From an uncultured Bacteroidota bacterium (GTDB taxonomy: Bacteria; Bacteroidota; Ignavibacteria; UBA10030; UBA8401), in the NCBI GenBank assembly GCA_963717445.1, contig OY970334.1, positions 965,798 to 1,029,797 on the forward strand: a stretch of 64,000 bases of DNA, in the 5' to 3' direction. Below the pieces are notes generated by a model. It was not told where the DNA came from and did not search any database. It saw only the letters and a list, made by a program, of their open reading frames with translations. Position numbers and translations under genes: made by a program. Positions 16,315 through 63,931 of this stretch are shown here, in pieces; positions within the stretch are counted from its first letter, which is position 1; each line of letters begins with the position of its first letter.

Positions 16315-16406
16315 AGTGCTCTCCGTAAAAGTATTGGCGCCAATCTGTAGAGCGCCAACGATAAGGTGAATTGATGATAACTCTCCTCCTCGCCTCTTAT
16401 CTTCCA

Positions 16407-18165: not shown

Positions 18166-18244
18166 TATCGTGCAAGAATCTCCTGCGCGTGCCCGGTTTC
18201 CGGACATAACCCCTATTATTGATGATTACACCAATACGACCCCG

Positions 18245-18283
18245 TCGCTCGCAAGAATTAGTTAGGTCAATTCTTGCGAGCGA
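18245..18283 (-). terminator. Perfect 15-bp stem / 9-nt loop hairpin downstream of the 18342..20516 gene
   Basis: TCGCTCGCAAGAATT-agttaggtc-AATTCTTGCGAGCGA lies 60 nt past the stop codon. Confidence 0.45.
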
Positions 18284-18341
18284 ACGTCGGGCGCAAACGA
18301 CTGTCTCGCACCCAGAAGCGACCGACCCGATAGTCGAGCTG

Positions 18342-24646: not shown

Positions 24647-25933
24647 CTATCCAGTAGTAAAATGCCACGTCGGGCCTCGAAGCGTATCGGCCCCGTCAAT
24701 CTCGTCGATCCGCCAATAATATGTCGTATGTGCGCTAAGCCCCACAGCTTCGAATGAAGCAAGCTTCTGATTTTTCATGAACAACGGAGCTGCTTCCTTC
24801 CCGAAATAAACGTCGTGCGATTCTGCGTTCCGCGCCGGAATCCATCGCAGACTGACTTCCGTCCCTTCCACATCATAAGCTGCATCACGTGGAAATGGGA
24901 AAGCGACATTGGCAAGAACTGAGGGCATTTCTGCTTCAGGATTCCATCTGCTTCCGAACGTCCATTCTGCAGTTACTTGCGCAGGAGTCGGAGAACCCTC
25001 CGCAGTTGAAAGGTTGTCCTTGAACCAGGCAAAATCTCCCCCCTCGCGATGACAGTTGTAAAAGTAATGACGGGATCCCCAAACCCAAGGCACCAGGTTC
25101 GGAGAATTGAGCGGCGCATAGATCGGCTCGTCTGCCATGTTCCTTGAAAAAATGCAGTCAAGCAAATAGAATTGCGCGTCGCGGTGATGGCGACCCAACG
25201 GAAATCCGGGAACGCCGTCAAATTGAGAATACCTGATAACAAACTTCTGGTCCTTGTTTGAACTCCCGTCGTGCCAGATGCTCGCACTTAGGTTGTGGCC
25301 GTAAAACCGGCTATCGGTGATGTAACACCATCCACGAGGGCAGACAAAATCGACCCATCCCTCGAAGTAACAGTTTGCATGGTAGTACATACCTTCCGCG
25401 CGGTTCCACAAACTCATCGTGTCGCCGCCGTCGGCGATCACGTTGCAGTTCAGAAAAATTATGCGTGTCGCATTGAAGCCGCGAACTGCAAATTGGTGCT
25501 CGTGGTTACCGTAGAGACTTCCGTAATTGTTGTACACGGTAAGATTCGCCATGGTGATGTCCGTTACCCCATTTCCGATATTGACAACCGCCGAACCCCA
25601 ATCGGCACTGTCGAAACTTCCCTCACGATGGTTGTTGGGAATTTTCGTCCAATTCGCACGTAACTCCGCGTACACAATGCGGGTGCTGTCCCTCTCTTCG
25701 CCGACAAGGGCAATATTGCTTTTTGTTATAAAGAGCTTCTCCTTATAAATGCCTTTCTTAATGAGGATGATGATCAGCTGCTCGGCGTTTTGGGGGACCG
25801 AATTCAGCGCTTCCTGAATGGAGTGAAACTGACCTGTTCCGTCCTGCGCGACAACGATATCCGCACGTTCGGTGGCCGTTACATAAACGCGACCGGCAAA
25901 GAAAAAGAACACCGCTAGAAAAACTCGTTTCAT
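24647..25933 (-). CDS. Pectinesterase (carbohydrate esterase family 8)
   Basis: Signal peptide MKRVFLAVFFFFAG (ATG verified 25931-25933). Contains IVVAQDGTGQFHSIQEAL, the classic pectin methylesterase N-terminal block, then beta-helix repeats. Confidence 0.75.
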   Translation of the reverse strand: MKRVFLAVFFFFAGRVYVTATERADIVVAQDGTGQFHSIQEALNSVPQNAEQLIIILIKKGIYKEKLFITKSNIALVGEERDSTRIVYAELRANWTKIPNNHREGSFDSADWGSAVVNIGNGVTDITMANLTVYNNYGSLYGNHEHQFAVRGFNATRIIFLNCNVIADGGDTMSLWNRAEGMYYHANCYFEGWVDFVCPRGWCYITDSRFYGHNLSASIWHDGSSNKDQKFVIRYSQFDGVPGFPLGRHHRDAQFYLLDCIFSRNMADEPIYAPLNSPNLVPWVWGSRHYFYNCHREGGDFAWFKDNLSTAEGSPTPAQVTAEWTFGSRWNPEAEMPSVLANVAFPFPRDAAYDVEGTEVSLRWIPARNAESHDVYFGKEAAPLFMKNQKLASFEAVGLSAHTTYYWRIDEIDGADTLRGPTWHFTTG

Positions 25934-25945
25934 GTTCGCCGTCAT

Positions 25946-29337: not shown

Positions 29338-30405
29338 TTATTTAGCCTCAACAGCGATTTTTTTCTGTAGCGAGAGGGGGTTGCACGTTTCTCTCAGAGT
29401 TAAACTCGCGGGGATCACGATGTGACGTTCTTTTTGTTTTTCATGACTCTTGATGACGTTGAGAATCGTGCGAACCGCCGTTATACCGAGTTCCCGTGTC
29501 GGCTGGTTCACGCAACTCAAAGCGGGCGAAAGCAAATGACTCATATCACTGTCTCCGAAGCACATGATGTCGATATCATCAGGAATTTTCAGCGCCAGTT
29601 TTTTTGCCGCTTCGTAGACTCCGAGCGCCACAGGATATGTTGCGGCAAAAATGAATTCCGGCAGCGTCCCCTTGTCATAGAGTTGCATGAATCCGTCGTA
29701 GCCATCTTTTGTTCCGAAGCCGCCGGGGACTATCCACTCCTGGCGAATCGGAATATTATGGCTTTTCAGCGCCTCTTCGAACCCAAGGAGGCGATTCTTG
29801 CCGATATTGATCCATGGATTCCCACCCCCGATAAATCCGAGCTTCCGGTGGCCTGCGTTGACGATCGCATGTTCCACGGCGTTGCGCGTCCCCTGCCGGT
29901 CGTCAATCAGGACCGAGTCGAAACCAAAAAGCTTCGGCTCCGGCATGCGGTCGACAAAAAGGAGAGGAACGCCCATCTTCTTCACCCATTGAAAGATGTC
30001 GAGGTTTTTCGTTTCCTGGGAAATTGAGATGATGATTCCGTCGACCCTCATTGAGATGAGCGTCTCGATATGCTTCCTCTCCCGTTCTTCGTTTTCCTGC
30101 GAAACGGTTAAGATCGTTTCGTAATTATTCTCAAACGCGGTGTTGTACACCGCCTCGATCAGCGATCCGAAGAAAAAGTGTGCAATTTTCGGGACCACGA
30201 AGCCGAGCATGTTCGAACGGCGCGCCGAGAGATTGCGTGCCATATAGTTCGGGCTGTAGCCCAATTCTTTGGCGATGCGCCTTACTTTCTTGGCAGTCTC
30301 ATCGGAAATATCGGAGTGACCTCGCAAGGCCTTTGAGACCGTTACCCTTGAAACTTTGAGCTTCCTGGCTATATCATCCAATGTAACATGGGCACTGCGT
30401 TTCAC
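29338..30405 (-). CDS. LacI-family transcriptional regulator
   Basis: N-terminal HTH VTLDDIARKLKVSRVTVSKALRG followed by a periplasmic-binding-protein-like sugar-binding core. Confidence 0.85.
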   Translation of the reverse strand: MKRSAHVTLDDIARKLKVSRVTVSKALRGHSDISDETAKKVRRIAKELGYSPNYMARNLSARRSNMLGFVVPKIAHFFFGSLIEAVYNTAFENNYETILTVSQENEERERKHIETLISMRVDGIIISISQETKNLDIFQWVKKMGVPLLFVDRMPEPKLFGFDSVLIDDRQGTRNAVEHAIVNAGHRKLGFIGGGNPWINIGKNRLLGFEEALKSHNIPIRQEWIVPGGFGTKDGYDGFMQLYDKGTLPEFIFAATYPVALGVYEAAKKLALKIPDDIDIMCFGDSDMSHLLSPALSCVNQPTRELGITAVRTILNVIKSHEKQKERHIVIPASLTLRETCNPLSLQKKIAVEAK

Positions 30406-48702: not shown

Positions 48703-51700
48703 GAAACGCTCCTCGTTTTTTTCAAATCGACGTATGCAATACATCCCCCCACTTCCTTGGCGGGGTAGATTTCTTTCAGTATGAGCATGTAATTTCGAAC
48801 CTGAATAATATAATCGCTTTCGGTTTCGTCCCCGCCGGTTTTGAAATCGACAACCGTTACACTCTTCGGATCGATAACAATTCTATCCGCCCGGTACAGT
48901 GCGCCCTCCCGGTTTGTGAGATCTTGTTCGAGCAGCACGACTCTCCCTTCTTTGCGGATGAAGCACTCGTGTAGATTGGGTTCTTCCAAAAATCGGCAAA
49001 TCAATTTTTTTACCTCCTCAATTGAATCCGGGGCGGGCATTTCATGGCTGACCCCTACAACTGCAGCGTCCACTTGCACTTCGAGGTCGTCGTTGAGAAA
49101 CTCAATGGTCGAAAAGACACGATGGATGAAATCGCCCCTCTTCGCTTCCTGCCTGCCGACGCTCTCATACGTTTGCACCAAAAGAGGTTTTCTTATGGTA
49201 TGGTGAAACGGCAAGAAGAGGTTTTCCTCTTGAACATCGCTCACAATGACCGGGGGTTTTGAAGCGGGTTCATATCCCTTTTGAGGAAGAAATTTGGTGG
49301 GTTCTTTACGCTCTTTCTTATAAACCCCGACAACATACATTTCATTTTCAGCTCTCGTAAAGGCAACATACAGTTTGTTAAATGTATCCACTGTTTCCTT
49401 GAATTGCTCTTCCTTCAATAATACTCTGACCTGCTCAACGTTATCAGCGATCTTCTTGTTCACTTTCAAGATCGATACGGCATCTTCATCTTCACGCAGC
49501 AAAAAACTTTTTCCCCGGGGGATGCTATCATAAAGCAAAACAATCACAACGGGGAATTCCATTCCTTTCGCCTTATGGATAGTCATCACCTGCAAAGCAT
49601 CAATGTCTTTGGGGACGTCGATCTTCCAGACATCGTCGTTGGTGTCATCCTCGGAATATTCAAGAAAGTTTTTTGTGGTGTTTGCTCCCCGTTGTTCGAA
49701 CGCTCGTATCACTTCAAGCAGTTTTACCAAAGACGCTTCTTCATCGGGCGATGTGTAAAATACGTTAAAAATTTTGTATGCCTCCGATACCAAATCATAC
49801 AGAGGAAGATATCCCACAACATTGAAGAGATGCTCAAAATATTCATTCCACACTTTTTGGAAACGATCCCGAAATGCCGTATAGAGCGGATCGCGGCCCC
49901 GTATCCTTGCGTTAACAATGAATTGCGCAATCTCATTTCGGGCTGCGCCGCCTCTTCGTTTCGCCATGACGTTATTGAACACATCCCCGAGAATAAACGT
50001 TGCGAAGGAGAGATCGTCAACGGGGGAATCAAGAAACCGGAGCAGTGCAATAAACTCACCGGCGCTCTTTCGGCGCCTCACGTCAAGCGTGCTGTGCGAA
50101 ATGATCGGGATTCTTTGCTCGTTGAGCCATCCGCTCACTTCGATAACATTGTTGTTGTTCGGCGTAAGAATCGCGATTTCGTTAAAACGGTATCCGCGAG
50201 CATGGCAGTCATCGACGATGCTCAGCAGCTTAAGTTTTTCGGGTGGATCGACTCCGTCTTCTTGAACAACATCGACCTCGACGTATCCTTTGCCGGTATG
50301 GTCCGGAGTGACATGTTGTTCATACGTCGACAGTCCGCTCGCTGCCGCTTCATCGCGAAAACCTTCGCCGGGGATGATCGTGTGAAATACATCTTTAGTG
50401 AACGTAACGATCTTTTCCAGACTTCGATAATTCAGGTCGAGCGAATTCACCTCGTGATGAGCCGAGGGAAACGGGTTCACTTCCGTCAATTGCTTCATAA
50501 TTCTCCAATCGGCATCGCGGAAACCGTAGATCGATTGCTTCGTATCCCCGACAACAAAAAGGCTCCCTCCCTTGGAGAGCGATTCTTCAATCAACGGGAA
50601 TAAATTCCTCCATTGGATTTGCGACGTATCCTGGAACTCATCGATGAGATAATGATAAATCGTTTCGCCGATCTTAAAATATATTTCCGGCACACTCTCA
50701 ACGTTGAGATGCCCGGCGAGTGTCCGATTGACGTCATCGATGAAGACCTGGCCGTTTTGTTTCTTCAATTTCTCGATCGTTTGCTGGAGCAGCGTGTAGG
50801 TCTCGGCATACGGCTGATAATACGATTCAACATACTGAAGAAAAAATTGACCGAGAAGCTCGTTCAATTGCCGGTGTTCGTTGTCAATTTCCCCGATCCA
50901 TCGTTCGTACGCTGCCGTTTCGGCCTTCCCTTTCGGCTTATTGACTGGACTTGCCCGTTGCTTTCTCTCGATCAACGCATGAATGTTATCTGTCCGAATC
51001 AATTCAAGGTCATCGGCAAAGAGGCTGCCGACAGCCAGCCCGGATTTTTTTATCTCCGCTTGGACCTTTAGCGCTTGGGCTTTGATTCGTTCTCGAAGGG
51101 AGAACAGCGTCGATGATGAACTGTTTGAGCTGAGAGGTTTCGTCTGTGCGGCGACGGCTTTATATATTTTTTTAACCTCGCCGGTAAGATGTCCGTACGG
51201 ATTCCACAAAAAAGTACTTTCCCCTCTTCTGCTTTCCGATATCAGTTCGACGATTTTTTCAACAACCCGCGCTTGGCCGGAATTTTCCTTTACCTCCTTC
51301 GAAAAAATGTCGAATGCCTGGTCAAAAAAACTGTCGGCACTCATGAGAATCTCAAAATCGGGGTGATAGCCGTACTCAAGCGACGATGATTTAAAAACAG
51401 TTGACATGAAACTGTCGACTGTTTTTACTTGAAAATCGGAGTAGTTGTCAAGAATTCCATCGATCAATCGACTTGCTTTCAATTCGATATCCGCACGATC
51501 CATCGAAATAAGGTTGCCCAGTTCGCGCAGCGTCTTTTCATCTCCAAATGACGCGAGCTTCAGCAGCGTGAGAATCCGCTGCTTCATCTCCGCGGCAGCG
51601 TTATTGGTGAAGGTTATCGCAAGAACACTTTGGAGGGCATTGTGACGGGTTTTGTCCGACAATAAAATTTGTACATACCGGTGTGTGAGCGCATACGTTT

Positions 51701-51779
51701 TCCCCGCCCCCGCAGATGCAGTCAATACAGTTGCCGATGGCAAAAGAATGTCGGTTTCCTTGTTAATGCCGGAAGGCAT
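48699..51779 (-). CDS. addA: AddA/RexA-type UvrD-family helicase with C-terminal nuclease
   Basis: Walker A TASAGAGKTYALT and the UvrD motif AITFTNNAAAEMKQRI. The C-terminus has a RecB-like nuclease (DFKTGG...YxxQ). Confidence 0.7.
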   Translation of the reverse strand: MPSGINKETDILLPSATVLTASAGAGKTYALTHRYVQILLSDKTRHNALQSVLAITFTNNAAAEMKQRILTLLKLASFGDEKTLRELGNLISMDRADIELKASRLIDGILDNYSDFQVKTVDSFMSTVFKSSSLEYGYHPDFEILMSADSFFDQAFDIFSKEVKENSGQARVVEKIVELISESRRGESTFLWNPYGHLTGEVKKIYKAVAAQTKPLSSNSSSSTLFSLRERIKAQALKVQAEIKKSGLAVGSLFADDLELIRTDNIHALIERKQRASPVNKPKGKAETAAYERWIGEIDNEHRQLNELLGQFFLQYVESYYQPYAETYTLLQQTIEKLKKQNGQVFIDDVNRTLAGHLNVESVPEIYFKIGETIYHYLIDEFQDTSQIQWRNLFPLIEESLSKGGSLFVVGDTKQSIYGFRDADWRIMKQLTEVNPFPSAHHEVNSLDLNYRSLEKIVTFTKDVFHTIIPGEGFRDEAAASGLSTYEQHVTPDHTGKGYVEVDVVQEDGVDPPEKLKLLSIVDDCHARGYRFNEIAILTPNNNNVIEVSGWLNEQRIPIISHSTLDVRRRKSAGEFIALLRFLDSPVDDLSFATFILGDVFNNVMAKRRGGAARNEIAQFIVNARIRGRDPLYTAFRDRFQKVWNEYFEHLFNVVGYLPLYDLVSEAYKIFNVFYTSPDEEASLVKLLEVIRAFEQRGANTTKNFLEYSEDDTNDDVWKIDVPKDIDALQVMTIHKAKGMEFPVVIVLLYDSIPRGKSFLLREDEDAVSILKVNKKIADNVEQVRVLLKEEQFKETVDTFNKLYVAFTRAENEMYVVGVYKKERKEPTKFLPQKGYEPASKPPVIVSDVQEENLFLPFHHTIRKPLLVQTYESVGRQEAKRGDFIHRVFSTIEFLNDDLEVQVDAAVVGVSHEMPAPDSIEEVKKLICRFLEEPNLHECFIRKEGRVVLLEQDLTNREGALYRADRIVIDPKSVTVVDFKTGGDETESDYIIQVRNYMLILKEIYPAKEVGGCIAYVDLKKTRSVS

Positions 51780-51939
51780 AGCACCCTGCTTGAAATGAGA
51801 CCTTCATCTTCAAAGTTTCTAAAACAAAATATCCAAACTTCGGACAGTTTGGACATTCAACAAAAACTATGCGGACGCTGGATCAATTTTCTTCAATGAG
51901 CCGAAGAGATGGATCGATGGATTTGCACTCGGATGAGAG

Positions 51940-52356
51940 TCAAATTGAATATTTTGCCACGATCCACTCGGGGATAACTTCCGCCCTCCCCGTTTTCTGA
52001 TTCACCATCGTATAATGAACATAGCCATCGCATGAAAGCTTGTTGTTTTCTTTTTTAACGATTTCGAATCGCACCTTCACACCGTCCTTAAGGACTTCTT
52101 CGATCCACGTTCGGACAATAATCTTTTCCCCCAGTCCCAGGGGGCGTTTGTGTTCGACATGAGTGGTATTCACAACCCAGCTGTAACCGAGCGCAATGAA
52201 TTCTGCCATATTCATTTTGTAGCAGCGTTCCATCTGATCATATCGGGCCGCAAGGACGTAATCCAAATATCTCGTGTTGTGGACGTGTTGGTTCATGTCG
52301 ATGTCGTCCGGGCGAACCTGGAGCTCGGTTTCAAATTTAGAATGCTGGAGAGCCAT
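51940..52356 (-). CDS. Acyl-CoA thioesterase, hotdog fold (YbgC / 4HBT-like)
   Basis: About 138 aa. ATG verified at 52354-52356. The protein begins MALQHSKFETELQVRPDDIDMNQHVHNTRYLDYV, the 4HBT catalytic region. Confidence 0.65.
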   Translation of the reverse strand: MALQHSKFETELQVRPDDIDMNQHVHNTRYLDYVLAARYDQMERCYKMNMAEFIALGYSWVVNTTHVEHKRPLGLGEKIIVRTWIEEVLKDGVKVRFEIVKKENNKLSCDGYVHYTMVNQKTGRAEVIPEWIVAKYSI

Positions 52357-52612
52357 GGAGTTCCTTGTGCAAACACGATACGAACAATTCGGAGGAAAAT
52401 CAATCCGTCGGACATATCCACGAAGCTCACGAACAAACACGAAGAGAATATGATTAAAGGATGTTATCTATTAGACCCTCTAGGCGAAAAAATTATAAAC
52501 CGCATAATACAGATTTAACCCTTCGTGTTTCTTCGTGTCCTTAGTGGAAGACAAAAAAAGCTCCGGTTGATTGCGGCGCTCCGGAGCTTTCATTGTAAAA
52601 AACAAATGGAAA

Positions 52613-55600
52613 CTAATGTTTGTCCGGATACGGTGGAGGTGGAGGCAGTTTTGCCGGATGTGTTTTCATCTGGTCAAGAATAACTTCAATTGCCTTGTTG
52701 AGCTGTTCGTCGATTCCAGCGTATTCCTTTGCCGGATCATTATCGACAACAATATCCGGGTCTACGCCATGTCCTTCCATAATCCATTTTTTCCCTTCGA
52801 TATCGTAACGGGAGAATTCCGGCTTGTTCAGGAACCCGCCGTCCAGGAAAGGGAGCGAACCGCGAATGCCGACTACTCCTCCCCACGAACGTTTGCCGAC
52901 AATTGGACCGATCTTATATTGTTTGAAGCGATATGCGACAATATCACCGTCGGAAGCAGAGAATTCATCGAGAAGCAATACCTTCGGACCGACCATCGTT
53001 CCGCTCGGGTCTGCACTGAAGGAGGTATTTCGCGCAATATCGATCATTGCGATTTCCCGATGCAATCGTTCGATGATCATCGGCGAAACGAAGCCGCCGC
53101 CGTTGCCGCGTACGTCGACGATGAGCGCTTCTTTCGTCAACTGGGGATAATAGTACTTGACGAACTCGTCCAAGCCGTGGAATCCCATATCGGGAATATG
53201 AACGTAGCCGACTCTTCCGTTCGTCGCTTTTGAAACTTTCTCGATGTTCGACTGCACCCAATTAAAGTAGTACAGTTCATGCTCGTCGCCGGTCGGTACG
53301 ACAACTGTTTCGTGGCTCCCTTCTTCCTTCGGTTCATCGTTCAATGTCAGGGTGACTTGCTTGCCGACGGTCCCGACGAGAGATTCATAAATATTGTTCA
53401 TCTCATTCGTCGGCTTGCCGTTCACTGCAAGAATATATTCCCCCTCTTTAGCGTTGACACCGATTTCAGTGAGAGGAGAGCGAAGGGTATTATCCCAATT
53501 TTGTCCACGAAGGATTTTCACAATGCGATAGTATTGTGAAACCGGATCGCGTTCGATTTTTGCACCAAGCAGGCCGGTCTTAATCCGTTCAGCATGCGGC
53601 ATTTCTCCTCCGCCCACGTATGTATGCCCGGTGCTCAATTCGCCGATCATTTCCCCAAGAATATATGTCAAATCGGCGCGGTGGTTCACGTACGCAACCA
53701 ACGGCTCATAATTCTTGCGGACATTTTCCCAGTCAACACCGCTCATGTTGGGGGCGAAATAGAAATCCCGCATCTGCCGCCATGCTTCGTGGAAGATTTG
53801 GTTCCATTCCGCGTGATGGTCGACCTTCACTTTCATGTCCGAGAGATTTAGCTTCTCCTTTATTTCGATTTTGGAGGTCGGCAAATCGATAATCGCGTAG
53901 GAGCCTTCCTGTCCAACGAGCATCTTTTTCCCGTCGGCAGAAATCTCGAATCCGTTAAAATCCCCAAGCTCGTTCTCTTTCAATTTTTCAAAATCAAAAA
54001 AGAGCAATTTAGATTTCTCATCCTTGCTGCCGTTGCGGATATAATAGAGCTTGTCTCCTACCGATTGTAAGTTGCGATAATTGGCGGCCGAGATCGGCAA
54101 TCCTGCGATGCGCTGTTGCAAACCGTCAAGATCCACTTTGATCGTTGGTTTTGATTCTTCTTTTTCATCTTTCTTCTTGTCCGGCCTATCGGATTCTTTG
54201 CTGACCTCTTTAATGTTCACTTCATCGCTCTTCGGCTCGAATGGAGATTTTGTCTCCTTTGAAAGTGTGACAAAATAAATCTTTGCCATATCGGTATAGA
54301 TATGCTCCAGCTCGGTTTGGCTCAGTGTCGGATTAAAACTTCTATCCGAAATAAAGAAAAGAAATTTTCCGTCGGAACTAAATTCAGGAGAATACGACGA
54401 ATACCATCCGTCAGTAACGGCGTACGATTCTTTCTTTTCGAGCGAATAGAGATAAATATTGGTCATCGATGAGTCTTCTGCTTTTGCATAAGCAATCCAT
54501 TTGCTGTCCGGAGACCATGCATAGTCCGAGAACTCCCAAGCCGTAGCCTGCGCTACTGTGGTTATTTTCTTCGATTCGACCTCCACGTACTGCAGGCGCA
54601 ATTTCTTGTCGGCCCACATGATTTTTTTGCTGTCCGGAGACCAATATCCCTGATATTTGTACGTATCGCCGTTCTTGGTCAATTGCGTTCCCGGTGCACT
54701 CCCGTCCTGAGGCATGATATAAATCTCATCTTCGCCGGATGCGTCCGAGATGTAAGTAATCCACTTACCGTCGGGCGACCATTTGGAATTGCGCTCATGA
54801 ACACCGGATGTGTTCGTCAGGTTACGTGTGTTCCCGTACTTGACCGGCACGGTGAAAATTTCTCCCCTTGCCCCGAAAAGAGCCCTGTTGCCGTCGGGAG
54901 AGATTTCGTAATTCGTAATATTCTTACTTACATCGACAACGTTCGCCCGGCCGATGGCAAAGTCTTCATCAATATAAATTGTTACCTTCTCTGTTTTTTC
55001 TGTCGCGAGGTCAAAACGATAAATGTATCCCCCGTTTTCAAAAACTATAGCGCTATCCCCGAGCGAAGGGAATTTCACATCGAACTCAACAAAGTTTGTC
55101 AATTGCTTTGTTTCTTTGGATGTCAGGTCGTAGGCATAGAGATTCATGCGCTTGTTTTCATCGCGGTCCGACACAAAATAGATTTTGTTCCCGCTCCACA
55201 TCGGAATAATATCTTGCGCCGGATTATTGGTGAGGTCAGTCGTTTGCTTCGTGTCAAAGTCATACAACCATACATCGTCTGCCTGACCGCCGCGATATCG
55301 CTTCCACGTCCGGAACTCCCTAAATATTCTATTATAAACCATTTTCTTTCCATCCGGAGAAAAAGAACAGAACCCACCGCGGGGTAAGGGAAGTTGTTGA
55401 GGCAAACCGCCGTTGATGGAAGTTATGAAAAGTTGTCCCTTGAAATCATTCGGCTCGTTCATTCGAGAACGAAACACGATATGCGAACTATCTTTCCATG
55501 TCATCACGATATTATTCGGACCCATGCGGTCAGAAACATCGTCACGGTCGAGGGTTGCGGTAAATGTGAGCCGTTTCGGAACGCCTCCTTCTGCCGGCAT

Positions 55601-55888
55601 GAGATAGACCTCGGTATTGCCGTCATATTGTCCAGTGAAAGCGATCCATTTGCCGTCGGGCGAAAAGCGGGCAAACATCTCGTATCCTATGTCGCTGGTT
55701 AACTTGCGCGCAACGCCCCCAGTCGATGAAACAGTATATAAATCACCGGCGTAACTAAAAACAATCTTGTCACCGTGTATCGCAGGAAACCTCAATAAAC
55801 GCGCCTCCTGTTGGGTGAACGCCATAGAAGACACCGAAAGGACGAGAGAGAGCAAAAAGATGAGCCTTTTCATAGATAAAACCTTCAT
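52613..55888 (-). CDS. Tricorn-protease-like multidomain peptidase (beta-propellers + PDZ + S41 peptidase)
   Basis: 1091 aa. Has a signal peptide and repeated PD40 / WD-like propeller blades (FSPDGKWIAF, SPDGNRALF, SPDSKKIMW). The C-terminal S41 region includes GYVHIPDM...VDVRGNGGG. Confidence 0.75.
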   Translation of the reverse strand: MKVLSMKRLIFLLSLVLSVSSMAFTQQEARLLRFPAIHGDKIVFSYAGDLYTVSSTGGVARKLTSDIGYEMFARFSPDGKWIAFTGQYDGNTEVYLMPAEGGVPKRLTFTATLDRDDVSDRMGPNNIVMTWKDSSHIVFRSRMNEPNDFKGQLFITSINGGLPQQLPLPRGGFCSFSPDGKKMVYNRIFREFRTWKRYRGGQADDVWLYDFDTKQTTDLTNNPAQDIIPMWSGNKIYFVSDRDENKRMNLYAYDLTSKETKQLTNFVEFDVKFPSLGDSAIVFENGGYIYRFDLATEKTEKVTIYIDEDFAIGRANVVDVSKNITNYEISPDGNRALFGARGEIFTVPVKYGNTRNLTNTSGVHERNSKWSPDGKWITYISDASGEDEIYIMPQDGSAPGTQLTKNGDTYKYQGYWSPDSKKIMWADKKLRLQYVEVESKKITTVAQATAWEFSDYAWSPDSKWIAYAKAEDSSMTNIYLYSLEKKESYAVTDGWYSSYSPEFSSDGKFLFFISDRSFNPTLSQTELEHIYTDMAKIYFVTLSKETKSPFEPKSDEVNIKEVSKESDRPDKKKDEKEESKPTIKVDLDGLQQRIAGLPISAANYRNLQSVGDKLYYIRNGSKDEKSKLLFFDFEKLKENELGDFNGFEISADGKKMLVGQEGSYAIIDLPTSKIEIKEKLNLSDMKVKVDHHAEWNQIFHEAWRQMRDFYFAPNMSGVDWENVRKNYEPLVAYVNHRADLTYILGEMIGELSTGHTYVGGGEMPHAERIKTGLLGAKIERDPVSQYYRIVKILRGQNWDNTLRSPLTEIGVNAKEGEYILAVNGKPTNEMNNIYESLVGTVGKQVTLTLNDEPKEEGSHETVVVPTGDEHELYYFNWVQSNIEKVSKATNGRVGYVHIPDMGFHGLDEFVKYYYPQLTKEALIVDVRGNGGGFVSPMIIERLHREIAMIDIARNTSFSADPSGTMVGPKVLLLDEFSASDGDIVAYRFKQYKIGPIVGKRSWGGVVGIRGSLPFLDGGFLNKPEFSRYDIEGKKWIMEGHGVDPDIVVDNDPAKEYAGIDEQLNKAIEVILDQMKTHPAKLPPPPPYPDKH

Positions 55889-56248
55889 GATGGTGAACGA
55901 TAGTTGTGAGGCAACGTGTATACGGTGCGAGTGGGGAAAAGTTACATCAAATATTGGCGGACGACTTCATATGCTGCCGTATGGTATACTGTGATATTCT
56001 TCCAAAATATACTGTTCAAAAAAGTGTGGTGCAAATCTGCCTTTGCTCTATTATATTAAAGCACTGAACAATATTCTTACGCGCAGGCGCTGGCAAAGCC
56101 GTCACTTCAGAAAAAGCCGCCAATGTTTCATTCGTAATCTGTTCTACGCCTTGGCGACTTTGCGTGAATCAAACTTTCCGGATTTTTCAGAATGCTCATG
56201 ATGTACCTCTTTGCAAATTTCATTTTTGTCCTCACAAATTGAAAAGAC

Positions 56249-58069
56249 ATGATGATTCGCAATTTTATTTTAGCTCTATTCATTCTCCTGTCTGAGTTTT
56301 TCCTTTCCGATGCCGGATACTCCGCGTTTATCCATCCCGCAGACTCATTATTCCTTCGCGTTGTCGTTCCAGACAGCGACACGATTGTAACAACCGCATC
56401 GCGGCAGAGGGTTTCTGCTTCTACTCTTCCTACCGCAAGGGCATTCATTAACGGCAAAGAAACCAAGGTATATGCCAGCGGTGCTTTTTGCGGTATCGTC
56501 AATGTCCCGGTAGGTTCAACAACACTTCGGCTTGTCGCTCAGTCGGCAAACGGCGATTCCGTTTTCCAAAATTTTGTTGTGCAGAGGCCTGAGCCTCCCA
56601 AGACTTCGCCACGCGAACCCATATCCATGGACACTATCATGATGGAGCCGTCGCAGGATATATGGCTGGGCAAGGATGACGTTCTTGAAGTAAAATTCAA
56701 AGGCAGCCCGGGATACAAAGCTTTTTTTGACATTGCCGGTGTTGAGTCGGGCATTCCGATGACTGAGCTTCAGCCGGCAAAAGCGGGCGGGCTTGCCGGA
56801 ATCTACATCGGAAGCTACAAAGTGAAAGAAGATGATGAAGCGAAAGAAGTGCAGGTGAGATTTCGTATTCCAAAGAATTTTTTCACGAGTGAAAAGGCAT
56901 ACTCAAAAGGAAAAGTCTCAATTATACCGAAAGAGCTTCCCCGTGTCGCCGAGGTCGTCGGCCGGCGGCCATTCTTCAATGCCGGTATGGGAAGCGACCG
57001 CCTCGGCGGGGCGAAATTGGGCTTTCTTCGAGCCGGCGTTCGCGTCGTGGTCACGGGAAAAGTCGGAGACCAATACCGAGTGAGGCTCGGTGATGAAATG
57101 GAAGCATGGCTGCCTGAAGATTTCGCCCAACTCCTGCCGTTCGAAACGCCGCGTCCCCGTTCACTCATTGGCGCATTGACGGTGTCGGGCAATGACAAGG
57201 AAGATGTTATTACGGTTTCATTGGATGAGCGTCTTCCGTACCTAAGCCAGCAACTCGTCGATCCTGCGGCCATCGTCGTCGATATTTTCGGCGCTACGTC
57301 CAATACAAATTGGATCACGCACCAATTGTCCGGAAGCGGAATAAAGAACGTAACGTGGAGCCAGGTGGCAGCCGGGCAATATCGCCTCACCATCATGTTG
57401 AAATATCAACAGCATTGGGGCTACGATATTAGTTATGATAACGGGTCGATCATGCGCATTAGTGTACGTCGACCGCCGATTATTTCCTCGCCCGACTCCG
57501 CGCTCAATGGATTGACCATCGCGGTTGATGCCGGGCATGGAGGGGAAAATGACGGCGCACTTGGTTCAACGGGAAAAAAAGAAAAAGAGATAACGCTCTC
57601 GATCGCCCAGCACCTCGATTCACTCCTGAGAACAAAAGGAGTAAACGTGATTATGACGAGAACAAACGATGAGACCATATCGATGGCGGATCGGACGGAT
57701 AAAATTCTCAACTCCGGTGCACAATTGTTAGTCAGTATCCACGCCAATTCCGCCGGCAATTCGGCCGACCCGGAACTCTTAAAGGGAACAAGCGCATACT
57801 ACCGTCATATCGGTTTTCAACCGCTGGCAAACATCGTTTACGGTAAAATGCTTGAGTTGGGACTGGATCAGTTCGGAGTGGTAGGAAGTTTTAATTTTAC
57901 GCTTAACGCCCCGACCCAGCTTCCGAACGTCCTGGTAGAAACAGCCTTCATGTCAAACCCGGAAGATGAAATGCTGCTCCTCGACGATAATTTTAGAGCT
58001 CGTATCGCCGTTCAAATTGCAAAGGGACTTGAAGAGTTCGTCACAACGTATGCCGAAAGGAAAAAATAA
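56249..58069 (+). CDS. N-acetylmuramoyl-L-alanine amidase (Amidase_3, AmiC-like, with N-terminal AMIN-like domains)
   Basis: Signal peptide. The C-terminal Amidase_3 domain includes TIAVDAGHGGENDGALG, LVSIHANS and ETAFMSNPED. Confidence 0.8.
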   Translation: MMIRNFILALFILLSEFFLSDAGYSAFIHPADSLFLRVVVPDSDTIVTTASRQRVSASTLPTARAFINGKETKVYASGAFCGIVNVPVGSTTLRLVAQSANGDSVFQNFVVQRPEPPKTSPREPISMDTIMMEPSQDIWLGKDDVLEVKFKGSPGYKAFFDIAGVESGIPMTELQPAKAGGLAGIYIGSYKVKEDDEAKEVQVRFRIPKNFFTSEKAYSKGKVSIIPKELPRVAEVVGRRPFFNAGMGSDRLGGAKLGFLRAGVRVVVTGKVGDQYRVRLGDEMEAWLPEDFAQLLPFETPRPRSLIGALTVSGNDKEDVITVSLDERLPYLSQQLVDPAAIVVDIFGATSNTNWITHQLSGSGIKNVTWSQVAAGQYRLTIMLKYQQHWGYDISYDNGSIMRISVRRPPIISSPDSALNGLTIAVDAGHGGENDGALGSTGKKEKEITLSIAQHLDSLLRTKGVNVIMTRTNDETISMADRTDKILNSGAQLLVSIHANSAGNSADPELLKGTSAYYRHIGFQPLANIVYGKMLELGLDQFGVVGSFNFTLNAPTQLPNVLVETAFMSNPEDEMLLLDDNFRARIAVQIAKGLEEFVTTYAERKK

Positions 58070-58437
58070 TAACCAAAGTCGTCTCCATTGTCATCGCTTT
58101 GGCACACCAACAACCATTTATTTCAGGTCAAGGCGTGGCAGATATCGGTAGTGCTCAAGTTTGGTAAGGTGACGGACACCTTTCCGATTTGCCTTGCCAA
58201 ATATTTTGGAACAATGTGATTTTTGGAGTGAGGTGTCCGGCACCTCATGCGAGTACGCAAAATTGACCACTGCTCAGATATCTCTTCCCTTGAAACCCAC
58301 ACTAAAAATTCTTACCTTATCAACATACGATTACCGCGAACAAGCGCACTACAGCTTCTGCTGCACCCTCCCACCCATGGCACGTATGATTGGGATCGCC
58401 AAGGAATGAAAATCTTCTTATTGCATAGGACGCCACC

Positions 58438-60087
58438 ATGAACATCGTCCCGAGCCGTCTGGCTCAAAAACTTATCCTCTCCCTTACAATCATCGTTATT
58501 ATCGTAGCCGGCGTCTCCGGATTTCTCAATGTAAAAACGCAGGAACGCCAGCTTCTTGACGCGATGGTTCTAGGCGCCGACCAGCTTTCCAATGGAATTA
58601 CAAGCGCAACGTGGCATGCCATGCTGGCCGATGATCGCGAGGCGGCATACGAGGTAATGCAAACAATCGCGACCAAGCAGGGTATCGATAGAATTCGTAT
58701 TTTCAACCGAGACGGAAAAATAATGTTTTCGACAAGGCATGAGGAGAACGAACAGGTGGAAAAAAACGCCGAACCCTGTTCACCGTGCCATACCACATTG
58801 CACCCATTGTCAAAAGTCGACATTCCCTCACGCGCCAGAATTTTCGATAACCCGGACGGGAGCCGGAGACTCACGATGATCACCCCGATCTATAACGAAC
58901 CATCGTGCAGTCAAGGAGTCTGCCATGCACATCCGGCTGAAACAAAAGTGCTCGGAGTACTTGACGTCGCCCTTGACCTTGACCGCGTCGACAAAGAAGT
59001 CGCCAATGTGAGAAACAGCGTTTTTGCCGTCACCGGAGTTGAAATCCTGTTGATTGCCCTTTTCATCATCTTTTTTACCCGCAACTTCGTCGATATTCCG
59101 ATCCGAAAACTTATCGATGGCACGCGCGCTGTGAGCGCGATGAACCTCGATCAACCTATCGACATTAAGGCAAGCGAAGAATTGTCTGTCCTGGCCAAGT
59201 CATTTAACACGATGCGCGAGCGGTTGAAGCGATCGATCGACGAGAATGTGCAATTTACTCAAAGCCTCGAAACAAAAGTCGACGAGCGAACCGCACAATT
59301 GAAGGCTGCCCATCAAAAATTATTGCAAAGCGACCGGCTGGCATCTCTCGGCCAGCTCTCGGCCAGTGTAGCGCACGAAATCAACAACCCGCTCTCCGGC
59401 GTGCTCAACCTGTCAATGCTGATGCAGCGTATTCTGAAAGACAACGGCATCCCGCCGGATCGAATCGAAGAATTCCGCAAATATCTTTCACAAGTAGTCA
59501 ATGAGACATCGCGGGTCGGACACATCGTTTCCGATTTACTTGCGTTCTCCCGCAGATCGAAACCGCAAAGCAGTATTGCCGACCTGAACGGTATCGTCAA
59601 GACAACGCTCGCGCTTATTTCTCATAAACTAAAGTTGATGAACGTCGAAACCGAGCTTACGCTTGAACAACAACTTCCTGCCGTTCAGTGCGACGGATCT
59701 CAGATGCAGCAGGTCGTCCTCAACCTCGTGATGAACGGCGCTGAAGCAACACTGAGCAAGGGCGGCGGAAAAGTTTCAATCAACACACGGTCCGTCCCAA
59801 AAGAGAATTCTGTAATTCTCGAAGTACAAGATACCGGAGACGGTATTTCGCCGGAAAATCTGTCGAAAATTTTCGACCCGTTTTTTACGACAAAAGGCGA
59901 AGGCAAAGGAGTCGGACTCGGTCTGGCCGTTGTGTACGGAATCGTGGAAGCTCATCGCGGAGACATCGAGGTGAAAAGTAAACCCGGTGAAGGAACAACA
60001 TTCATCGTTACTCTTCCACTGTTGAATGAAGAACGACCCCAGATTCCGGGCACTGTGGCGACTTCGGAAATGGAACGCATGGGGTGA
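58438..60087 (+). CDS. Sensor histidine kinase (2 TM, periplasmic domain with CxxCH, HAMP, HisKA, HATPase_c)
   Basis: TM1 is at residues ~13-31 and TM2 at ~193-213. HisKA H-box [13 protein letters not shown]-, G1- and G2-boxes are present ([26 protein letters not shown]). The periplasmic loop carries C114-S-P-C-H118 and C157-x4-C-H163. Confidence 0.8.
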
Positions 60088-60665
60088 ACTACATTTACCT
60101 CGCCCCAATCGGCGCGGTCAACGGTGAGATACTTACTGCGCTGGAAACACCATTGTGGCACGCTTTCGGGTTTGAAGTTCGAAGAATGGCCACACTCGAA
60201 GAACCATCATACGCGTTCGATGCGCAGCGCAATCAGTATAGCTCAACAATGATCCTTCGCGACCTCGTGCGGCGATGCCCGGAGGACGCCATACGCGTTC
60301 TCGGTGTCACAGAAAATGACCTTTATATTCCAATGCTCAGCTTTATCTACGGTCAGGCACAATTACGGGGCACCGTTTCGATTATCTCGCTAGCCCGTTT
60401 GCGTCAAGAATTTTACACTTTACCGGCAAATGGTGCACTGTTGCTAGGTAGAGTCGCAAAAGAGGCACTCCACGAAATAGGACATACGTTTGGTTTGATT
60501 CACTGTCTCGACAAAGGATGCCCAATGTCACTTGCGACGAATATTCATCAACTCGACCTCAAGGGAATAAATTTTTGTGCAAGTTGTTCAATTTTAATAC
60601 GGGAGAATATTACTATGATAAGCAATCAAACTCCGATTCGCAGCCGCTCGGAGGATAAACCATGA
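60084..60665 (+). CDS. amzA: Archaemetzincin-like zinc metallopeptidase (peptidase family M54)
   Basis: HEIGHTFGLIHCLDKGCPM-x16-CASC matches the archaemetzincin signature HExxHxxGx3Cx4CxMx17CxxC almost exactly. There is a 4-nt ATGA overlap with the kinase stop, and another with the response regulator start. Confidence 0.75.
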   Translation: MNYIYLAPIGAVNGEILTALETPLWHAFGFEVRRMATLEEPSYAFDAQRNQYSSTMILRDLVRRCPEDAIRVLGVTENDLYIPMLSFIYGQAQLRGTVSIISLARLRQEFYTLPANGALLLGRVAKEALHEIGHTFGLIHCLDKGCPMSLATNIHQLDLKGINFCASCSILIRENITMISNQTPIRSRSEDKP

Positions 60666-62020
60666 AGCCGCAGTGGGAAATTCTAGTTGTCGACGATGAA
60701 GAGGTGATGCGTGAATCGCTCGCAGCCTGGCTGCGGGAAGACGGCTATGGCGTGGAGACCGCATCGTCAGGCCGAGAGGCAATTGAAAAAGCCGGTGGAA
60801 AAGATTTTGCCATCTATTTCATCGACCTGAAGATGCCGGGAGGGATCGACGGCATCGAAACGATGATGGAGATCCGCAAGATGCATACAGAAGCGCCGAT
60901 CATCATCATTACCGCTTATGCAACGGTGGATACTGCCATTACGGCGATGAAAGAGGGGGCACAAGAGTACATCGTCAAGCCGTGCAACCCGGAAGAGATT
61001 TCACTGCTCGTGAGCCGCATCATCAAAGTAAAGAACCTTCAGCGGGAAAATACTATTCTCAGGAAGAAATTAACACGGCAATACAGTTTTCAGGACATCA
61101 TCAGCAAAAGCCCGAAGATGCACGAAATTTTTCAACTCGTTCAGGAAATTGCGAGCCTCCGGAGTACGGTGCTCATCGAAGGAGAAAGCGGTACCGGCAA
61201 GGAATTGATTGCGCGCGCGATCCATTTCTCCGGCGATCGGGCGGCGAAGCCGTTCATCGGCGTCTCGTGTGCTGCGCTGGCAGAAACGCTTCTCGAATCG
61301 GAATTATTCGGCCATGAGAAAGGCTCCTTCACCGGCGCAACTTCTCAAAAAAAGGGAAAGTTCGAGATGGCAGGGGGGGGAACCATTTTTCTGGACGAGA
61401 TCGGAGACATCTCGGCGAAATTGCAGATGGACCTTCTCCGCGTCCTGCAAGAACGGAGTTTTTACCGTGTCGGCGGCTCGGAAGAAATTCAGGTTGACGT
61501 TCGCGTTATTGCTGCAACGAACACCAGTCTCCAGGAAGCGGTCGCTTCGGCAACATTTCGCGATGACCTTTTCTACCGGTTGAACGTCATCAATATTCAT
61601 ATTCCTCCTCTTCGCGAACGGCGTGAAGACATCCCCCTGCTCGCCCACCACTTTATCGAGCGGCTCTCGCATGAATTGGGAAAAGAGGTCGGGGACGTGA
61701 CCGAGGGGGCGTTGAAGGTTTTGCTCGACTATAATTGGCCCGGCAACGTCCGCGAGCTAGAAAACGCGGTCGAACGAGGGATCGTAACATGCAGAACACG
61801 CATTCTCACAGAAGATGATTTTGGATTCCTGAATCACGGCAACGGAGAGAAAAAAAAATGGACGGTGCCGGACAATATATCTCTCGAAGAAATGGAGAAA
61901 CAATTAGTCACGGCAACCCTTCAACGAACAAAAGGGAACATCAAAGAGGCGGCCGAAGTCCTTGGTATCGATCGTTCAACGCTGTACGAGAAGATTAAGA
62001 AATACAATATCCTACGGTAG
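60662..62020 (+). CDS. Sigma-54-dependent response regulator (REC + AAA+ + Fis-type HTH; NtrC/AtoC family)
   Basis: The REC domain has the phospho-acceptor DLKMPG. The AAA+ domain has GESGTGKE, the GAFTGA-type loop EKGSFTGA, and DEIGDIS. The C-terminal HTH reads AAEVLGIDRSTLYEKIKKY. Confidence 0.85.
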   Translation: MKPQWEILVVDDEEVMRESLAAWLREDGYGVETASSGREAIEKAGGKDFAIYFIDLKMPGGIDGIETMMEIRKMHTEAPIIIITAYATVDTAITAMKEGAQEYIVKPCNPEEISLLVSRIIKVKNLQRENTILRKKLTRQYSFQDIISKSPKMHEIFQLVQEIASLRSTVLIEGESGTGKELIARAIHFSGDRAAKPFIGVSCAALAETLLESELFGHEKGSFTGATSQKKGKFEMAGGGTIFLDEIGDISAKLQMDLLRVLQERSFYRVGGSEEIQVDVRVIAATNTSLQEAVASATFRDDLFYRLNVINIHIPPLRERREDIPLLAHHFIERLSHELGKEVGDVTEGALKVLLDYNWPGNVRELENAVERGIVTCRTRILTEDDFGFLNHGNGEKKKWTVPDNISLEEMEKQLVTATLQRTKGNIKEAAEVLGIDRSTLYEKIKKYNILR

Positions 62021-62132
62021 AAAAGCTGAGGGTGTAATGAAAAAGGCTTTTGCGTTGCGTGAGTTACTGTAACATTCATGTTAGGAAATCTGGTAGTGAC
62101 CTAGTTTGGATGATAGGCTTGATTGAGTTATC

Positions 62133-62570: not shown

Positions 62571-62857
62571 ATTGTCAATCCAACACGGTTATCGGACTGA
62601 GTCACGCCGGCTTTCTTCCTTCTCAAAATAAGTCTCTACCGTAAATCCCCCTCTGCTGCGGGAGGACGTATATCGGAGCGAGGGGAATAAATAATCCTCA
62701 CCGCAAGCGGCGAATTATTAGTCATGCCCGCCCAAAGGCATCCAGATTGTGGATTCTGGCTTTCGCCAGACCTTATGTTTAAAAAGAAGAAGCCTCAACA
62801 TTGTTTTGTATATTTGAGTTGTCGAAAAACAAACACACAAACAATGCGAGGCTTCTT

Positions 62858-63931
62858 ATGCAACCCAAATGTAGTGAAGTAGATTTTAGGGGTCAAGATA
62901 TCTATGTCGGTATCGATGTTGGAAAGAGAAGTTGGAAAGTCTGCATCGTGACTGAATACGTAGAACATAGGGTCTTTACTCAACCGCCCACCCCAGCGAT
63001 GTTGGCAAATTATCTTCATCGAACATTTCCAGGTGCCAGATACCATAGTGCGTATGAGGCAGGATTTTCCGGTTTTTGGGCGCACGAGGAACTCCAAGCG
63101 CTCGGAATCGACTCTCGGGTCGTTAACCCGGCCGACGTGCCGACAACGCAGAAGGAGAAATCCTTTAAGACCGATAGGATCGATGCCCGTAAACTTGCCC
63201 GGTCCTTACGCAGTGGTGAACTGAGACCGATTTATGTTCCACCGAAGGAGGCGCAAACATACCGGTCATTAGCCCGACTGCGGAGCGTGTTGGTTCGTGA
63301 TCAAACTCGTTGTAAAAATCAGATCACATCCCTGTTGCATTATTATGGAGTACCAATCGACGAGTTATGCATTCGGACGCACTGGTCAAGGGCGTATCTT
63401 CGTGTGCTTGAGACTACTTCCCTCCACACCGAGCAAGGCACAATGGCATTGCGTATTCTTCTAAGTCGATACTATGCTATTAGAACCCAGGTCTTGGCGC
63501 TCACAAAAGAGATTCGAACCTTGGCACACGAAGAGCCTTTTCGGGAATCTATCCGGGTCTTAGTGACTGTTCCCGGCATCAGTGTCATCACCGCCATGGT
63601 CTTGCTCACGGAACTCATCGATATCAATCGGTTTGCTTCGCTTGATCACCTTGCCAGTTATTGTGGCTTGGTTCCTGGTGAACGCTCCAGCGGCGAACGG
63701 GAAATCATCACCGGTATTACCCGGCGACGAAACCCCTTCCTACGCGCGATGCTTATTGAATCGGCGTGGTGCGCCGTACGCCATGACCCCGCATTGTTGG
63801 CAAAGTTTGGCTCATTAAGCAAACGCATGAACAAGAATCGAGCGATCGTTCGTATTGCACGGAAACTCTTGAACCGAATTCGTTTTGTGCTCGTGCACCA
63901 CACAGAGTATCAACGATCTTTGGCAGCGTAA
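62858..63931 (+). CDS. IS110-family transposase / recombinase (DEDD RuvC-like + Tnp domain)
   Basis: YVGIDVGKRSW N-terminus, KTDRIDA, and a C-terminal ASYCGLVPGERSSG block. ATG at 62858-62860; the track start at 62801 is a non-ATG extension. Confidence 0.8.
   Translation: MQPKCSEVDFRGQDIYVGIDVGKRSWKVCIVTEYVEHRVFTQPPTPAMLANYLHRTFPGARYHSAYEAGFSGFWAHEELQALGIDSRVVNPADVPTTQKEKSFKTDRIDARKLARSLRSGELRPIYVPPKEAQTYRSLARLRSVLVRDQTRCKNQITSLLHYYGVPIDELCIRTHWSRAYLRVLETTSLHTEQGTMALRILLSRYYAIRTQVLALTKEIRTLAHEEPFRESIRVLVTVPGISVITAMVLLTELIDINRFASLDHLASYCGLVPGERSSGEREIITGITRRRNPFLRAMLIESAWCAVRHDPALLAKFGSLSKRMNKNRAIVRIARKLLNRIRFVLVHHTEYQRSLAA

Follow-up and report, generated by a model that had tools for sequence, protein, structure and literature searches.

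A probable two-haem periplasmic sensor kinase and its NtrC-type gene module in an uncultured Ignavibacteria bacterium

What does a histidine kinase sense when its periplasmic loop carries two cysteine-histidine motifs and a pectin-utilisation locus is encoded in the same region? The question is raised by a stretch of 64,000 nucleotides (nt) from an uncultured Bacteroidota bacterium of the class Ignavibacteria (contig OY970334.1 of assembly GCA_963717445.1, positions 965,798 to 1,029,797). This whole stretch is referred to below as the window, and all positions are counted from its first letter. The original prediction, made from the letters alone, had proposed a periplasmic sensor domain with c-type haem on a kinase coupled to sigma-54. 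Our analysis suggests that the kinase is probably a two-haem periplasmic redox sensor. The best explanation of the locus as a whole is a two-haem Cache redox sensor that drives an NtrC-type regulator of a Qrc-like operon, and we consider this explanation somewhat likely to be correct.

Two Cys-His motifs in the periplasmic sensor domain

The kinase protein is identical to NCBI entry MGA9406114.1, from a 'Bacteroidota bacterium' metagenome-assembled genome (MAG). Its parts follow the order first transmembrane helix (TM1), predicted periplasmic haem-type sCache domain, second transmembrane helix (TM2), HAMP, HisKA and HATPase_c. Pfam placed HAMP at residues 221-264, HisKA at 304-373 and HATPase_c at 419-528, with PF21563 in the loop, and all the two-component domains scored well above their cut-offs. 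The gene has the following features.

58438..60087, + strand: sensor histidine kinase gene, 549 aa (open reading frame, ORF, and Pfam domains)
58471..58530, + strand: TM1 or uncleaved signal anchor, residues ~12-31 (Kyte-Doolittle window mean up to 2.7)
58531..59019, + strand: periplasmic sensor domain, residues ~32-194, a single Cache/PAS-like fold (AlphaFold2, Foldseek)
58777..58791, + strand: motif 1, C114-S-P-C-H118, CxxCH, predicted accessory (second) haem-c site in the beta2-beta3 connection (sequence, conservation)
58906..58926, + strand: motif 2, C157-SQGV-C-H163, Cx4CH, predicted core haem-c site on a short helix between the last two strands (sequence, alignment to 3B42)
59020..59082, + strand: TM2, residues ~195-215 (hydropathy scan)
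59374..59376, + strand: predicted phospho-acceptor His313, inside the Pfam HisKA match

The sensor domain is flanked by two hydropathic segments (residues ~12-31 and 195-215), as had been proposed, and both Cys-His motifs therefore lie in an extracytoplasmic loop. The motifs were found at the residues originally given for them, with the codons TGT TCA CCG TGC CAT for motif 1 and TGC AGT CAA GGA GTC TGC CAT for motif 2. The kinase contains five cysteines in total; four lie in the loop, and all of these belong to the two motifs. When the protein was shuffled 200,000 times, CxxCH appeared in 0.07% of the shuffles, Cx4CH in 0.08% and both together in none. The two motifs are not the product of chance.

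We then analyzed conservation in 179 relatives that cover the sensor domain. Cx4CH was found at the second site in 174 of them, CX3CH in one, and the motif was absent in four garbled or frameshifted sequences; it is embedded in the near-invariant block TPIYNExxCSxAxCHAHP. CxxCH was found at the first site in 143 relatives, and a clean loop deletion removes motif 1 in 36. Wherever the first Cys pair is present, the His that follows its second Cys is 100% conserved. After clustering at 50% identity, the pair of CxxCH and Cx4CH was retained in 119 of 127 representatives, and among these more divergent sequences the second site reads CX3CH in three and CxxCH in two. The Cys...Cys-His triad stays constant in distant members while its spacing drifts (CX2, CX3, CX4), and the two triads are gained and lost independently, motif 1 coming or going as a unit with its own His. 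This pattern argues for haem-attachment sites rather than for one four-Cys metal site or a disulfide pair, and the single four-Cys metal site was rejected on these grounds. At residue 160 (58915-58917), the kinase has Gly (CSQGVCH) and 92-97% of the family has Ala (CSxAxCH); this Gly is common to one relative that is ~86% identical (P0036; CSQGACH).

The relatives are numerous. A word-indexed search recovered 292 of them, an exhaustive search with a hidden Markov model (HMM) yielded no fewer than 1635 clusters (50% identity, E<=1e-3), 911 of them with E<=1e-10, and a genome scan confirmed at least 525 relatives among 600 matched stretches. Where a source organism is named, it is in most cases a MAG of the Acidobacteriota or Ignavibacteriota/Bacteroidota, and a smaller share comes from Kryptoniota, Eisenbacteria, KSB1 and Desulfobacterales. 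Haem-c sensors had been described in the original prediction as known in a few metal-reducing bacteria. They are known there but are not confined to them, as indicated by the clusters found here and by the sCache_heme family, which counts ~20,000 sequences (PMC12889525).

A profile search of the loop against haem-sensor families, suggested with the original prediction, returned PF21563 (Mcp40H-20_sensor) above its cut-off (30.0 bits against 27; E 6.9e-7) and no PF11845. The match aligns kinase residues 139-178 to profile positions 73-108, and the same annotation is precomputed for many homologues. PF21563 is based on GSU0582 and GSU0935, two haem-c sensors of Geobacter. We further modelled residues 33-193 with AlphaFold2 from a 30-sequence alignment (mean predicted local distance difference test, pLDDT, 82.9; predicted template modelling score, pTM, 0.77). 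In the model, a long N-terminal helix is followed by a second helix and by a sheet of five strands. The model places CSPCH on a helix between strands 2 and 3 and Cx4CH on a short helix between the last two strands. Foldseek ranked the sensor of GSU0935 first and second among PDB structures (3b42; E 1e-5, probability 1.00, ~20% sequence identity) and also matched 3b47; the Cache sensors of WalK, KinD, DctB and CitA followed 3b42. The root-mean-square deviations to 3b42 and 3b47 are high, as expected with domain-swapped crystal dimers.

The domain was then compared with 3B42 by sequence. With a family profile of the C-terminal half of the domain, the Cx4CH block was aligned on ...DGKRTLSLVLPFPNEQRCQ--SCH of 3B42, its haem-binding site, so that C157...C162-H163 falls on C-Q-S-C-H with two more residues between the cysteines here. 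From this alignment, Cx4CH is therefore predicted to be homologous in position to a haem-c attachment site that is known from a crystal structure. The full-domain profile reaches 3B42 at E 0.055. Its top PDB matches, designed WD40 repeats, were rejected as spurious (a low-information ...QTIA...NRxG... stretch). A single-sequence phmmer search of the periplasmic domain against PDB sequences gave no match, and 3B42 was reached by family profiles only. The spacing itself has precedents: CX4CH is an established haem-c motif (bioRxiv 10.1101/2024.01.05.574438), it occurs twice in cytochrome c3 (PMC10454114), and CX2-4CH is the stated signature of the Geobacter sensor family (PMC8396549). The original prediction had taken CSPCH as the canonical site and Cx4CH as a variant. 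CSPCH does have the canonical spacing, but conservation and the alignment to 3B42 indicate that Cx4CH is the ancestral, near-universal core site and that CSPCH is an accessory second site. All the sequence and structure criteria that could be tested here agree with a place in the GSU0935-type family, and the kinase departs from the DUF3365 profile and from its CXXCH rule.

Motif 1 presents its own resemblance to cytochromes. Nearly all PDB matches of a profile of the motif-1 segment (consensus vdKsaEaCxxCHas) are c-type cytochromes, among them NrfA, NapB, multihaem proteins and cytochrome c4, and the three alignments inspected place its CxxCH on the CxxCH of the cytochromes. We also searched the sensor domain for candidate haem ligands, which are the following.

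58621..58623, + strand: Met62, candidate distal haem ligand, in the invariant helix motif SATWHAML (conservation, analogy with GSU0935)
58657-58659, + strand: Met74, candidate distal haem ligand (conservation, analogy with GSU0935)
58930..58932, + strand: His165 of the invariant CHAHP, two residues past the proximal His (97-100% conserved)

Met62 is 100% and Met74 99-100% conserved in the clades with and without motif 1, and Trp59 and His165 are likewise invariant whether motif 1 is present or not. The haem of GSU0935 is ligated by His144 and Met60 (PMC8396549), and by analogy one of Met62 and Met74, which lie in the two N-terminal helices, is likely to ligate the core haem on its distal side. 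When these helices were made into a profile in order to map Met62 on Met60 of GSU0935, no PDB match was obtained, and the helices were not alignable to 3B42 by sequence. His165 could possibly serve as a ligand to the other haem.

A gene trio and its linkage to a Qrc-like operon

The kinase gene is followed by two genes on the same strand.

60084..60665, + strand: archaemetzincin-family (M54) Zn-metallopeptidase gene (NCBIfam archmetzin, Pfam Peptidase_M54)
60662..62020, + strand: NtrC-type response regulator with REC, sigma-54 AAA+ and HTH_8 domains (Pfam)

The pairing of a HisKA and HATPase_c kinase with a regulator of REC, sigma-54 AAA+ and Fis-type helix-turn-helix domains is the NtrB/NtrC-type layout. 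Pfam assigned Response_reg, Sigma54_activat (235 bits), AAA_lid_14 and HTH_8 to the regulator, whose sequence contains the sigma-54 contact loop GSFTGA, in line with the sigma-54 coupling that had been proposed for the kinase. The M54 gene scores 152 bits against the archmetzin cut-off of 145, encodes the motif HEIGHTFGLIH and a Cys-rich tail, and shares 4 nt with the end of the kinase gene and another 4 nt with the beginning of the regulator gene. Only these three genes of the window recur beside kinase homologues: a kinase in 68 of 81 related loci, the M54 gene in the same position between kinase and regulator in 40, across phyla, and the regulator, co-located with the kinase, in 60. A predicted cytoplasmic protease is an odd fixed third part of a two-component operon. 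In one Bacteroidota MAG (L014, ~6376-13000), the kinase/M54/regulator module is present in two tandem copies beside Qrc-like genes.

We clustered the neighbouring genes across the related loci (L002-L081). This revealed a conserved operon on the opposite strand, composed of a small ORF, a GcvH-like gene, a pentahaem cytochrome, a molybdopterin-oxidoreductase-like protein, a 4Fe-4S protein, an NrfD-like membrane protein and a second GcvH-like gene (for example, L046 ~3300-9400 and L030 13449-20078). NCBIfam names were obtained for QrcA (205 bits against a cut-off of 180) and QrcD (574 against 570), with QrcB and QrcC below their cut-offs; the four Qrc-named proteins form a menaquinone reductase complex according to NCBIfam. 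In 43 of 80 loci, from several phyla, this operon is the neighbour of the kinase module, in a convergent arrangement in 28 and a divergent one in 13. That the linkage is kept in two arrangements argues for a functional coupling of the kinase module and the Qrc-like operon. The operon is kept in Acidobacteriota, Ignavibacteriota/Bacteroidota, Kryptoniota and Thermoanaerobaculia MAGs, lineages that are not classical sulfate reducers. It is bracketed by the two GcvH-like proteins, which have a lipoyl-carrier fold and Cys-rich N-terminal regions, and its small ORF encodes a membrane protein of ~100 aa.

The closest relative (L085) has this operon next to the module. Its sensor is 83% identical to that of the window, and the two loci are collinear over 50005-62022 of the window at 79-86% nucleotide identity. 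In the relative, a GcvH-like/QrcDCBA/GcvH-like operon (13579-20433) begins ~200 nt past the regulator gene, and its cytochrome contains five CxxCH motifs. The lineage must be able to mature c-type cytochromes, because this relative encodes a pentahaem cytochrome. Collinearity stops at 62022, the regulator stop, and is followed in the window by ~780 nt without homology or Pfam match and then by a transposase.

62801..63931, + strand: IS110-family transposase, where the closest relative has the Qrc-like operon (Pfam DEDD_Tnp_IS110, Transposase_20)

This region has the appearance of an insertion that separates the regulator from its probable target, and the Qrc-like operon has here probably been displaced beyond the IS110 insertion or the end of the window. 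In the closest relative, the kinase was called as three ORFs (10001-11533) and the regulator as two (12221-13576), with the haem motifs intact in frame 0; these frameshifts represent either long-read assembly errors or pseudogenisation.

We searched for sigma-54 promoter motifs upstream of the operon. In eight of 21 loci (those with enough flank upstream of the first GcvH-like gene), the 600 nt ahead of this gene contain the pattern GGCA[CT]-N5-[TC]TGC, against 0.014 expected per 600 nt. These sigma-54-like sites are located at -166 to -437 from the GcvH-like gene, ahead of the small preceding ORF, and no match to a strict sigma-54 pattern was found within 350 nt upstream of the gene. The kinase gene was also found to be preceded by such elements: about 13 relatives present TGGCA(C/T)-N5-ATGCA 34-85 nt upstream of the kinase start, and the window contains one related sequence.

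58378..58393, + strand: sigma-54-like -24 element TGGCACGTATGATTGG, 45 nt upstream of the kinase start (unique in the window)

A sigma-54-type element upstream of the kinase suggests, from sequence, autoregulation of the module.

Taken together, we propose the following mechanism. After export, the cytochrome c maturation machinery would attach haem to C157 and C162, with H163 as the proximal ligand, and a second haem would be carried by C114, C117 and H118 in the inserted cytochrome-like loop. The periplasmic redox environment or periplasmic cytochromes would oxidise or reduce the haem or haems and thereby change axial ligation and spin state, Met62 and Met74 being candidates for redox-linked ligand switching. 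The resulting conformational change may be relayed by TM2 and HAMP to the HisKA/HATPase core, which would determine the phosphorylation of the NtrC-type regulator. The regulator would then activate sigma-54 promoters, most likely those of the QrcABCD-like operon with its pentahaem cytochrome and menaquinone oxidoreductase.

The redox reading and its alternatives

On sequence and modelling grounds, the original proposal of a periplasmic sensor with c-type haem holds, with the PF21563 match, the Foldseek match to 3B42 and the alignment to its haem site all in its favour. Several observations weigh against the mechanism that we propose. Haem attachment is deduced rather than observed. The PF21563 match barely exceeds its cut-off, the sequence match to 3B42 in the PDB is weak (E 0.04-0.06), and PF11845 (DUF3365/sCache_heme) has no match in the kinase (Pfam, E up to 1). 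The region of motif 1 is the least confident part of the model (pLDDT 61-74), and no residue was found to co-vary with motif 1 among the 179 relatives, so that no distal ligand emerges for the second haem. We found no CxxCH in other ORFs among ~38 large ORFs of the window and no cytochrome c maturation genes in its 64 kb. The maturation system typical of Bacteroidota is System II, which is not known to accept a Cx4CH spacing. On the regulatory side, the proposed target operon is not in the 64-kb window, and the window presents no excess of canonical sigma-54 promoters (25 TGGCAC-N5-TTGC-like matches against 26.5 expected). TGGCACGTATGATTGG keeps the GG of the -24 element and has a degenerate -12 element (TG replacing GC); the closest relative shares this degenerate form, and the element may be weakened or inactive in both.

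The alternative that survives best accepts the c-type haem and replaces the signal: a diatomic ligand, such as nitric oxide (NO) or possibly CO, O2 or sulfide, would bind at a labile distal position, and redox potential would not be sensed. A preprint reports that the tested signalling-associated sCache_heme domain, which is fused to transmembrane helices and a cytoplasmic HAMP, binds NO tightly and forms no stable oxy complex; its authors propose that this domain is a bona fide sensor of NO and not of redox state, and stand-alone domains look redox-related (PMC12889525). This also weighs against redox sensing here, as the kinase has the fused architecture TM-sensor-TM-HAMP-kinase. However, the kinase has no DUF3365 match and is closer to GSU0935, in which redox-linked Met switching is known (PMC8396549). 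Moreover, its conserved neighbour is a Qrc-type quinone/cytochrome complex and not a set of NO-detoxifying or denitrification genes, and the invariant Met fits a six-coordinate His/Met haem, though displacement of the Met by a ligand remains compatible with it. Redox and ligand (NO) sensing are indistinguishable from sequence, and we consider ligand sensing to be unlikely here, though by no means negligible.

A second alternative places haem at the core Cx4CH only and gives C114-SPC-H118 another role, be it thiol/disulfide redox switching, metal binding or a structural one. Of the 179 relatives, 36 do without motif 1, the solved homologues GSU0582 and GSU0935 carry one haem (PMC8396549), and the lack of a detectable motif-1-specific distal ligand and the low model confidence around the motif would also be in line with a single haem. 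These points are offset by the complete conservation of the His after the Cys pair, which a disulfide switch would not need, and by the flanks of the motif (vdKsaEaCxxCHas), which match true haem sites of NrfA, NapB and multihaem cytochromes. In addition, two-motif sensors are recognised in Geobacter and Anaeromyxobacter (PMC8396549, PMC3831638), and a periplasmic CxxCH is the substrate recognised by maturation systems (PMC3601427). We consider one haem alone to be a distinctly improbable arrangement.

The weakest alternative dispenses with haem altogether: the Cys and His residues would form a Zn or Fe site or two disulfides in an ordinary ligand-binding Cache domain, even one sensing sugar or uronate, as Cache domains are typically cofactor-free ligand binders (PMC12889525), the ligand-binding sensors DctB, CitA and KinD are among the top structural matches, and a pectin/hexuronate locus lies ~14 kb away; yet the haem site to which the second motif aligns has been solved by experiment, the His next to each Cys pair is retained through independent gain and loss, and the spacing is two, three or four residues while C...CH is kept, which leaves this possibility very remote.

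The pectin/hexuronate locus bears on this last alternative. The original prediction had placed the kinase next to it and had favoured redox or electron-acceptor sensing over sugar sensing. The locus is real (UxaC 8136-9545, KduI 7157-7990, pectinesterase 24647-25945, GH28 25946-27802), but it is more than 12 kb from the kinase, and AddAB-like helicase-nuclease, thioesterase, Tricorn protease and AMIN-amidase genes lie in between. No pectin genes were found beside homologues of the kinase module in 80 related loci. The locus also contains its own regulator.

29338-30405, - strand: LacI-family regulator inside the pectin/hexuronate locus (own regulator of the sugar locus)

With this regulator, the sugar locus has no need of the haem kinase. 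A pectin-sensing role of the kinase was rejected on these two grounds, and the preference for a signal other than sugar is upheld.

Meaning and comparison with known systems

Haem-c periplasmic sensors on methyl-accepting chemotaxis proteins (MCPs), kinases and c-di-GMP enzymes have been known since the work on DcrA and Geobacter. Geobacter signal transducers with CX2-4CH are already known, including the two-motif GSU0599 beside BccR. The modestly new elements are how large and how widespread among taxa the Cx4CH/two-motif branch is, its fixed association with archaemetzincin and its Qrc-like linkage outside sulfate reducers. The Cx4CH spacing is the norm in a very large haem-c Cache branch that occurs mainly outside the metal-reducing Desulfuromonadia and in which most members have a second, cytochrome-like site. 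The kinase is among the few two-component sensors of the window whose class of signal can be guessed from sequence, namely periplasmic redox state or a haem ligand, and in annotation it should be kept apart from the pectin-utilisation genes nearby. In Acidobacteriota and Ignavibacteriota of soil and sediment, the module shows genetic linkage to a Qrc-like quinone/cytochrome complex, and it offers a handle on the tuning of respiratory chains in abundant, mostly uncultured lineages, parallel to BccR/CbcBA in Geobacter.

A broader proposal can be made only tentatively, and we consider it less likely than not. The kinase may represent a large uncharacterised clade (at least 1635 clusters) of two-haem Cache sensors in a fixed trio with a cytoplasmic archaemetzincin and a sigma-54 activator. 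This trio could be dedicated to the redox control of an operon that encodes a Qrc-type menaquinone reductase between two Cys-rich GcvH-like proteins, outside sulfate reducers. One haem might be the antenna for electrons from periplasmic cytochromes, and the other might trigger the conformational change.

Among known systems, GSU0582 and GSU0935 (PDB 3B47, 3B42; PF21563) share with the kinase an extracytoplasmic position between two TM helices, a Cache/PAS-like fold, a long N-terminal helix, and a haem motif whose short helix is inserted between the same strands, with a common ...P-x-x-N-E-x-x-C...CH context. They differ in output, which is an MCP in Geobacter and a histidine kinase here, in the spacing of the core-site cysteines (two residues in theirs, four here) and in the extra CxxCH in the beta2-beta3 connection here; sequence identity to GSU0935 is only ~20%, and its distal Met is not alignable. 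In the Geobacter sensors, reduction binds and oxidation releases the axial Met, with midpoint potentials (Em) of -156 and -251 mV (PMC8396549). By published description, the kinase can also be likened to DcrA of Desulfovibrio vulgaris, a periplasmic haem-c sensor of redox potential and oxygen (PMC8396549) that is an MCP, and to Adeh_2011 and Adeh_3383 of Anaeromyxobacter dehalogenans, whose periplasmic haem-c sensor domains present an additional haem-binding motif (PMC3831638).

A 2026 preprint redefines DUF3365/Tll0287 and the Geobacter sensors as 'sCache_heme' (PF11845; Deshpande et al. 2026, PMC12889525). This family shares with the kinase a Cache scaffold, a cytochrome-derived haem-c motif on an inserted short helix, fusion to HAMP and kinase outputs, and a wide distribution in Gracilicutes. 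Its CXXCH is strictly conserved (99%), whereas the kinase has Cx4CH at the homologous place and CxxCH in a different loop. The kinase further differs in having no PF11845 match, and the tested signalling-associated member of the family is the reported NO sensor.

GSU0599/BccR offers a parallel in gene organisation. G. sulfurreducens encodes twelve signal transducers with CX2-4CH, of which GSU0591 and GSU0599 have two motifs (PMC8396549), and by gene number GSU0599 adjoins BccR (GSU0598). BccR acts with sigma-54, and the induction of the quinone oxidoreductase cbcBA at falling redox potential depends on it (bioRxiv 10.1101/2021.04.15.440034; the kinase is not mentioned in this paper). The two systems differ in the operon, which is Qrc-like in our relatives (QrcABCD with two GcvH-like proteins) and CbcBA in Geobacter, and in the archaemetzincin gene that separates kinase and regulator here. 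Going by published descriptions, both combine a two-motif (here, predicted) haem-c sensor with a nearby REC/sigma-54/HTH regulator. In Geobacter the regulator lies beside an operon for an inner-membrane quinone oxidoreductase and a multihaem cytochrome with a sigma-54 promoter, and in the relatives of the window it adjoins a Qrc-like operon with sigma-54-like sites upstream in some loci. By this analogy, we infer that the circuit logic of the module would be the same as that of BccR/CbcBA.

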